From Rikenellaceae bacterium (lineage in GTDB: Bacteria; Bacteroidota; Bacteroidia; Bacteroidales; Rikenellaceae), in NCBI GenBank assembly GCA_047172325.1, contig JBCQWG010000004.1:7118-71117 (forward strand): a stretch of 64,000 nt of DNA. Reading direction: 5' to 3'. The notes beneath the pieces are model-generated. The model saw only the letters and a program-made list of their open reading frames with translations, ran no database searches and was not told the DNA's origin. Positions 14,303-54,001 of the stretch are shown here, in pieces. A program made the translations under genes and the position numbers. Positions within the stretch are counted from its first letter, which is position 1. Every line of letters starts with the position of its first letter.

Positions 14303-14379
14303 CAGATCTTTTTTATCTATAAATTTGCGACAAAGGTAATCAAAATGTGTCAAAAATACTATTAATAACTCATTAAGGT

Positions 14380-14626
14380 TAGGGCAAACGTATGAAAAAA
14401 GTTTCTCATGCCTCCGGCGGGCGGTGATAGATGTATAATATTAAGCGTTGCAAATTCATTTGCATAAACTTAATGTTATGCATCTATCGTAGGGCAAAGC
14501 CCCATCACATCAGCGCAACACAAGAGTCAAAAACGATAGTTTTTGGATCCAAGCTATGCTTGGCGGCCGCCCGCTGTTAGGGCATAAGCAAGTAGTGTAG
14601 ACTCTATTTTTCATGCGTTTGCCCTA
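14380..14626 (+). mobile_element. MITE-like structured element, copy 1 (internally deleted, 247 bp)
   Basis: 20-bp terminal inverted repeats TAGGGCAAACG(T/C)ATGAAAAA. Colinear with 53546-53988 apart from a ~196-bp internal deletion. No ORF. Confidence 0.8.
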
Positions 14627-14667
14627 AAAATATTAATAGCTCATTTCATAAATTAACTTTTTTGTTG

Positions 14668-37840: not shown

Positions 37841-38007
37841 ATTTAAAAAAATTAAGAGATCAAAAATGTTATGCGAATTTATTCGTGATAACATTTTTGA
37901 TCTCTTAAATTTCATAGCGTCAGCTATAAGCCCAATACGCAAGAAGAAGAATAGCTCCGCAGGGAGCACCCTGCCCGCCGGAGGCAGTGAGAAACTTTTT
38001 TCATGCG
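37841..38007 (-). mobile_element. MITE-like structured element, copy 3 (left-end fragment, inverted)
   Basis: Reverse complement matches 53555-53718 closely (CGCATGAAAAAAGTTTCTCA..GCCTCCGGCGGGCAGGGTGCTCCCTGCGGAGCTATTCTTC..). Ends after a long hairpin and T tract. Confidence 0.8.
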
Positions 38008-38015
38008 GTACGACT

Positions 38016-53512: not shown

Positions 53513-53514
53513 AG

Positions 53515-53545
53515 TATTTAGAGGGGAGTTTAATCTCCTCTAAAT
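53515..53545. terminator. Terminator hairpin of convergent rlmB/GNAT, split by the MITE insertion
   Basis: TATTTAGAGGGG..CTCCTCTAAAT. The remainder (CCCTCTAAATACTT) lies at 53989-54002 and complements AAGTATTTAGAGGG. Confidence 0.65.
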
Positions 53546-53988
53546 CAGGGTAAACGCATAAAAAAGTTTCTCATCGCCTCCGGCGGGCAGGGTGCTCCCT
53601 GCGGAGCTATTCTTCTCTTGCGAATTGGGCTTATAGCTACGCTATGAAATTAAAGGTATTAAAATAGTTATCACGAATAAATTCGCATAACTATTTTAAT
53701 ACCTTTAATTTTTTAAATGCCTGAAGGCATTTAAACCCAATCCGAGGTTAACCTCGCTGATGGGATGATGTCAACCTCCGGTTGACATAGATAGATGCAT
53801 TATAAAGAGCGTTGAAAATAAATTTTCATAAGATCTTTATAATGCATCTATCGTAGGGTAAAGCCCTCATCACATCAGTGCAACACAAGGTCAAAAACGA
53901 TAGTTTTTGGATCCAAGCTTCGCTTGGCGGCCGCCCGCTGTTAGGGCATTAGCAAGTGGTGTAAGCTCTATTTTCATGGGTTTGCCTA
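53546..53988 (+). mobile_element. MITE-like structured element, copy 2 (longest, 443 bp)
   Basis: Imperfect TIRs CAGGGTAAACGCATAAAAA / TTTTCATGGGTTTGCCTA. Flanking direct repeat TCCTCTAAAT / CCCTCTAAAT (9/10). At least 7 internal hairpins; no ORF. Confidence 0.82.
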
Positions 53989-54001
53989 CCCTCTAAATAC
54001 T

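Follow-up and report, generated by a model that had tools for sequence, protein, structure and literature searches.

The Correia elements of Neisseria are abundant intergenic MITEs that lie near gene ends and whose transcripts form long hairpins; they have TA duplications and inverted repeats of ~26 bp, and we know of no resident transposase for them. The BOX elements of pneumococci and the BIMEs of E. coli are modular, mosaic, hairpin-forming intergenic repeats, BIME and REP sequences being linked to RAYT. REPINs, hairpins of ~100 nt that are moved by RAYT, consist of two inverted units with arms that vary in concert, and their insertion duplicates no target sequence. Transposition by the ISAs1 family of insertion sequences (IS) is, to our knowledge, little studied. 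One published member of that family, ISArsp11, is 1,306 bp long, has CAGGG... inverted repeats (CAGGGCTGATGC...) and makes a 10-bp duplication (PMC6305408). Full-text literature searches returned no description of an ISAs1-derived MITE, nor of the repeat family that is the subject of this report.

The element from which our analysis started lies in a stretch of 64,000 nucleotides (the window) on contig C4 of the genome of a Rikenellaceae bacterium (G000; 1.96 Mb in 54 contigs, 44.8% G+C, 87.7% complete), in which gene calls are simple ORF calls made for the present analysis. It occupies positions 53546-53989 and is a non-coding member of a miniature transposon family of ~150 copies. The evidence gives good support to the conclusion that this is a new family of MITEs for which an ISAs1 partner has been identified and whose structured cargo is dimeric and covarying. 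The original prediction, made from the letters of the window, had described three intergenic copies, the longest of them 443 bp of hairpins without an ORF, bounded by ISAs1-like inverted repeats and a short flanking duplication. All three are present and related, the longest extending one base beyond the end assigned to it; no ORF of at least 30 aa occurs within 53513-54001, and every hairpin that had been listed for the 443-bp element was found. Folding of these 443 nt is far more stable than that of dinucleotide shuffles (z -12.3 on the plus strand and -14.2 on the minus strand), with 0 of 100 shuffles as good. The terminal inverted repeats likewise proved real. The left one, CAGGGTAAACGCATAAAAAAG (53546-53566, plus strand), matches both the family consensus, YAGGGCAAACGCAYGAAAAA, and the ends of the IS at C8:5835/7120 described below, and the right one (53969-53989; on the minus strand, TAGGCAAACCCATGAAAAT) is degenerate, departing from that consensus at 3-4 positions. 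Direct reading of the sequence places the predicted flanking duplication, CCTCTAAAT, at 53537-53545 and 53990-53998.

The interior of the element is organized as two related arms. A covariance model, R1, built on the right arm (53747-53884, where it scores 151.8 bits on the plus strand) recovers right arms at 77-157 bits and also, on the opposite strand and along its entire length, left arms at 55-74 bits. The element is thus a head-to-head dimer around the palindrome CGAGGTTAACCTCG (53743-53756), the axis from which the alignments of both arms start, on opposite strands. The module of which the cargo is an inverted dimer measures ~140 nt and is not derived from the IS. Each module comprises a closing helix, with strands ~115-120 nt apart, drawn around a short conserved hairpin, a long hairpin of 19-25 bp (H2 on the right, H1 on the left) with a variable stem and a conserved loop, and a small hairpin of 4-8 bp. 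In the focal right arm, whose fold is read on the plus strand, the closing helix joins 53755-53764 with ~53871-53880, and the enclosed hairpins are Pa (53768-53788), H2 (53790-53852) and GGGT-AAA-GCCC (53856-53866). The left arm (53612-53757), supported by an alignment of 20 arms with MAFFT and RNAalifold and by the matches of other left arms to R1, has its fold on the minus strand; its parts are the closing helix CGGATTGGG/CCCAATTCG, a hairpin TATAGC-TAC-GCTATG (~53633-53647), H1 with a perfect 25-bp stem and the loop CACGAATAAATTCGC (53647-53711), and a small hairpin at 53712-53735. Two small sub-terminal hairpins, CAAAAAC-GATA-GTTTTTG (53892-53909) and CCAAGC-TTC-GCTTGG (53913-53927), together occupy 53892-53927 on the plus strand and constitute the least variable block among the copies in G000; at one pair of this block a change from GC to AU is compensated between species.

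The two other copies in the window are partial representatives of this plan. Copy 1 (14380-14626, plus strand) is a short derivative with both inverted ends, containing H2 (14426-14488) and the right sub-terminal block; both the centre and the left arm are missing. R1 matches 14395-14519 with 70.2 bits, and no target duplication adjoins the ends. A 15-nt direct repeat, TATTAATA[A/G]CTCATT (14/15 identical), lies 5 nt outside each end of this copy, at 14360-14374 and 14632-14646. Copy 2 (37841 to ~38009, minus strand) is a truncated left arm with H1 at 37847-37914, cut at the small hairpin, and an inverted-repeat remnant is found near 37995-38009.

Comparison among copies indicates that the fold has been maintained through compensatory change in both arms, which bears out the modular structured cargo that had been proposed. 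Among 38 right arms from seven species, pairing is seen in 93.6% of cells (a value inflated by the fitting of alignment A4 to the model structure), and both sides change at 34 of 48 pairs, with 5 of the 10 closing-helix pairs covarying; the observed values were reached by 0 of 500 shuffles, and slid controls pair at only 32-47%. The same architecture emerged from 20 left arms aligned independently with MAFFT and RNAalifold, in which 29 of 50 pairs covary on both sides, with a TT/AA to AA/TT change in the closing helix. The slid controls and the independent alignment A5 argue that the covariation signal is real despite the fitting of A4. Within the element no consensus of a promoter or a terminator was detected, a scan for sigma-70 promoters and terminators being uninformative and inspection by eye giving no Bacteroidota -33/-7 pair. 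The sequence had not been recognized as an Rfam family, and our search agrees, returning nothing at E <= 1 other than chance matches to hairpins of microRNA type, the best at 31 bits against a threshold of 50.

The long hairpins were surveyed in 34 copies of H1 and 48 of H2 in G000. Their stems vary at many positions and by indels, yet stay paired: ~60% (49/82) are perfect, and most of the others carry one or two mismatches. The loops are conserved, that of H1 type being identical in the relative G017. Two of the 34 H1 copies have the loop in flipped form, and both TTC and GAA are found at the apex of H2. The mismatches are strand-specific: those in H2 comprise 14 stem positions of G:T and none of A:C, whereas those in H1 lean the opposite way (3 G:T versus 9 A:C), as expected if H1 belongs to the inverted module. 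Each arm has a preferred strand: of 79 right arms and 58 left arms, 63 and 51, respectively, fold more stably on the strand leading away from the axis, the right arms of G017 and G205 being the exceptions.

A candidate for the mobilizing enzyme is encoded in the same genome. The IS at C8:5835-7120 is 1,286 bp long, contains a single intact ORF of 370 aa (C8:5984-7093) and is bounded by perfect 21-bp inverted repeats, CAGGGCAAACGCACGAAAAAA, at C8:5835 and C8:7120. Its product matches the equivalog model NF033564 at 370.9 bits (cut-off 70), as well as PF13808 and PF01609, and it is the sole ISAs1-type gene in G000. The IS and the miniature elements have in common an outer inverted repeat of 20-21 bp, CAGGGCAAACGCAYGAAAAA, the ends of the miniature elements being identical to those of the C8 IS at 19-20 of 20 positions. 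An ISAs1-like transposase, as originally predicted, is present as an intact gene between the same inverted ends. The cargo, for its part, is unrelated to the transposase, as had also been supposed, blastn with the 443-bp query giving no match inside C8:5835-7120. The flanks of this IS copy, TAAAGGCA and CGAAGGCA, are identical at 6 of 8 positions. At least two further copies of the IS ends terminate contigs in G000, which implies several copies of the IS that the assembly has collapsed. At least two, and probably three, IS copies are independently inserted inside the small hairpin AAATGCCTnnAGGCATTT of the miniature element (C8:5615-7140 and the contig ends C44 left and C51 right), and this suggests that the IS has a target preference for that hairpin, like the IS elements that target REP sequences.

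In intact miniature elements the inverted ends are 20 bp long (YAGGGCAAACGCAYGAAAAA), and the duplicated target measures 8-11 bp, in most cases 10, close to the ~8-10 bp that had been anticipated for an ISAs1-type element; examples in G000 are CATGTAAATT, TATAATCGAG, GGATATCGCG, ATTAAAAATA and CTTGGCGTGG. The miniature elements range from 69 to 449 bp, and an exact duplication of 8-11 bp flanks 7 of the 19 that have both ends, with one mismatch or indel in three more. The claim of ISAs1-like ends needs qualification: a recognizable inverted repeat is kept at about half of 87 left ends and at 14-22 of 61 right ends of the commonest type. Similarity to the inverted repeat fades over the outer 10-20 nt, and identity at left ends forms a continuum; gapped scoring of this decay has a random baseline of 0.60, too high to split decay from absence cleanly. 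No inverted ends are found in three full copies read in G017, and one G017 copy keeps a remnant, ATGAAAAGTT. Full-length copies in five other relatives (G206, G205, G271, G272 and G273) have ISAs1 ends and 10-bp duplications. The copies without inverted ends may be decayed old insertions, with arms held by selection or gene conversion, or may reflect a second route of mobilization, for which no partner came to light in G000.

The expectation of many more copies genome-wide was borne out on a large scale. The 443-bp query alone detected 142 loci in G000 by blastn, and the addition of six more copies as queries raised this to 150 loci and 29 kb, giving a range of 142-150 loci and 26-29 kb, or ~1.5% of the genome. 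By length, 97% of the repeat loci is intergenic, and the copies are concentrated between convergent genes: 54 lie in convergent, 55 in tandem and 13 in divergent spacers, against a background of 182, 1106 and 183 such spacers, respectively. The orientation of the element shows no bias relative to the upstream gene (29 same, 26 opposite overall), nor relative to neighbouring genes among whole, H1-only, H2-only or half elements, and a simple dependence on co-transcription is thus unsupported. Coverage of the element across copies is mosaic. Many copies are halves cut near the centre, between H1 and H2, with unique DNA past the cut; such half elements nearly always retain the centre and one arm, and truncated copies of the right type often start within the axis, with nothing of the element upstream. 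Three loci in G017 (L020, L022 and L023) are composite arrays, with an extra inverted right sub-terminal fragment beside the right arm. The search for a plasmid or phage origin of the element gave no match.

Several insertion sites, that of the focal copy included, lie in pre-existing hairpins such as terminators. Removal of the focal copy together with one CCTCTAAAT restores, in this virtual empty site, a perfect 17-bp terminator hairpin (z -7.5) between two convergent genes, and 5 of 11 reconstructed targets fall within hairpins. In a second virtual empty site, from which C9:49305-49749 and one TATAATCGAG are deleted, two ORFs become a single frame of 489 aa; its N-terminal piece is an Alpha_L_fucos domain truncated at position 214 of the 345 in the profile. 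This locus (L043, C9:48465-50389) is a GH29 alpha-L-fucosidase gene split by an intact-ended copy with a perfect 10-bp duplication, and the split is probably a recent gene inactivation. Empty sites in sister genomes, a check proposed with the original prediction, are represented by one real case, C7:41344-41372, which is vacant in G000 where G017 holds a copy. Clean synteny-based empty sites were not found in sister species, whose flanks are too diverged or rearranged, and metagenome scans gave no conspecific empty and filled alleles. About 10 of 35 copies in relatives share an intergenic spacer with a copy in G000. We rejected the notion that these are ancient, conserved orthologous copies, as they are no more alike than random cross-species pairs and two are inverted; with ~30% of the convergent spacers of G000 occupied, chance co-occupancy explains the overlap. 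Copies in the same spacer beside the same neighbour gene, in opposite orientation, are found at L063 (G206) versus C20:13880-14340 in G000 and at L075 (G205) versus C5:22995-23355, and either independent insertion or in-place inversion between the inverted ends could account for them.

The repeats also mark places where genomes are broken or rearranged. The flanks of L029 (G017) map beside repeats on two contigs of G000 (C10:8428 and C7:31434), as do those of L075 (G205; C5:22982 and C6:383). The two flanks of a relative's copy being split across contigs in this way, the repeats sit where gene order differs between species, a situation compatible with recombination among the copies. Several contigs of G000 are terminated by each of at least four further repeat families, whose ends include AAGGGGACTTCTAAAAATTAA..., GGAGGGTTCTAATTTTTC..., AAGTAGCGCAAAATAATTATTGCG... 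and GTAACTACTCAGCCCCTACAG... and which are probably insertion sequences. Fragmentation of the G000 assembly is largely repeat-driven.

The family has a narrow distribution, being present in 19 of 376 genomes of the genus (18 relatives and G000). Sixteen other families of the order gave no match, save for two borderline ones of ~30 bp (E ~1e-3), and the covariance model gave only two weak matches (~36 bits), in another genus, among 150 genomes of the family. Arm identity is 83-96% within most species (0.74 in G017 and 0.78 in G205) and 61-81% between species, a pattern that fits lineage-specific bursts or homogenization. The transposase was detected in only five close relatives, versus 18 for the repeat; metagenome-assembled genomes (MAGs) often miss IS copies, and the discrepancy is therefore weak counter-evidence to mobilization by this enzyme.

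Taken together, these features are best explained, with a probability that we place at about 0.78, by miniature elements moved in trans by a resident ISAs1-family DDE transposase and carrying a dimeric folded cargo of non-IS origin under single-strand constraint. The transposase would act through the ends common to the IS and the miniature elements, and the fold would be kept by constraint on one strand, which in each arm runs 5' to 3' away from the centre. From the sequence patterns we infer that this constraint bears on a single-stranded form, most simply RNA, which would be its most likely form. Our best guess is that structured RNA in 3' untranslated regions may serve as an end-protecting, processing or insulating element, insertions at the 3' ends of genes thereby being tolerated or useful; the dimer would present one sense module whichever way it is transcribed, and any such effect would thus be independent of orientation. 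Template switching within palindromes, at the level of DNA, probably keeps the long stems perfect, as their pairing, mirrored indels and flipped loops suggest. A bolder version, offered tentatively and with considerable doubt, is that the cargo is a functional structured RNA module (ssDNA being less likely) and the element a bacterial counterpart of a SINE: a MITE of DDE type would carry a head-to-head dimer that works either way, host selection would keep scores of copies at gene 3' ends, and the long, fast-changing perfect stems with their invariant loops would be sites of protein recognition or processing, for example by a double-strand-specific RNase.

Other accounts of the same observations differ chiefly in what moves the element and in what preserves its fold. 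Many copies stop at an inner boundary beyond which unrelated DNA follows, G017 copies lack ISAs1 ends, and the repeat is more widespread than the transposase; these points could be reconciled with an element of two layers, in which the core is a separate mobile unit with inner ends TATA[G/C]TTTCTCATCG ... CGATGAGARA[G/C]TATA, moved by another enzyme (e.g. a TA-targeting transposase), and the ISAs1 ends are an outer shell of some copies. We consider this unlikely, however, since no autonomous element with such inner ends was found in G000, where a search for the motif gave only chance matches in coding DNA, and since the TATA belongs to the long inverted repeat (~35 bp) that intact copies possess. 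Past the supposed boundary, moreover, resemblance to the ISAs1 inverted repeat fades gradually, with left ends forming a continuum and the ATGAAAAGTT remnant persisting in G017, and full-length copies in five other species carry ISAs1 ends together with 10-bp duplications. Spread by RAYT (Y1 HUH) transposases, as for repeats of REP, BIME or REPIN type, would suit a mosaic, hairpin-rich, intergenic repeat enriched at gene 3' ends, but duplications of 10 bp and 20-bp inverted ends common to a DDE IS are not features of REPINs. We rejected this origin, to which we attach almost no credence, as no Y1_Tnp domain (PF01797) was found in the 87.7%-complete G000 genome.

With regard to the fold, stems of 19-25 bp that are perfectly complementary despite differences between copies, mirrored indels included, as well as flips of whole loops and of the apex and the lack of orientation bias relative to genes, might all arise from purely DNA-level palindromes, that is, functionless hairpins kept perfect by intra-strand template switching at replication, with covariation as a by-product. 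Template switching operates on local palindromes, however, and it leaves unexplained the compensated changes in closing helices whose strands are ~115-120 nt apart, the conserved asymmetric internal loops and the one-strand mismatch spectrum of G:T only, so that this account also appears improbable. Dispersed small-RNA genes, one per arm, lying merely beside IS-like ends rather than forming the cargo of a transposon, might, on the other hand, be expected to show the conserved, covarying fold of several helices, the strand preference of each arm and the half elements that nearly always comprise the centre and one arm. This we regard as very unlikely: it is the target duplications and inverted ends that define the moving unit, a promoter was not found, right-type copies that are truncated often begin inside the axis, and the resemblance between copies is much greater within a species than between species, as in bursts of transposition.

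The explanation that we favour, trans-mobilization of a structured cargo by the resident ISAs1-family enzyme, ties a large repeat family, making up ~1.5% of a small Rikenellaceae genome of gut type and with candidate copies numbering in the hundreds in sister species, to a transposase that is both named and intact, which renders the system testable. For ISAs1 transposition, it places at hand an enzyme together with many natural substrates and target sites. The cargo is an unusual one for a MITE, combining mirror-image multi-helix folds, compensation across species, a preferred strand in each arm and perfect stems that diverge fast; if its fold acts as RNA, these elements would give bacteria a means of supplying many genes simultaneously with a regulatory RNA structure. 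Assemblies are broken by the family and its partner IS, which also sit at differences in gene order and are thus relevant to the assembly and annotation of MAGs in this clade.

Comparison with the described systems places the family among MITEs while setting its interior apart. Like REPINs, these elements are hairpins of two inverted units with arms that change in step, but they make 10-bp target duplications, and no RAYT was found in G000. With BOX and BIME they have in common a mosaic construction, in which modules are present or absent between copies, whereas neither BOX nor BIME has inverted ends or target duplications that connect it with a DDE IS. They differ from Correia elements in the varied 8-11-bp sequences that they duplicate, in place of TA, in having an ISAs1 partner and in carrying a multi-helix cargo. 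In form they resemble IS-derived bacterial MITEs, which are likewise short, free of ORFs and multi-copy, with the inverted repeats of a resident IS and target duplications of the length typical of its family (~10 bp). Unlike such MITEs in general, however, the present elements enclose an interior that is not a deleted IS, but an unrelated and conserved dimeric fold.
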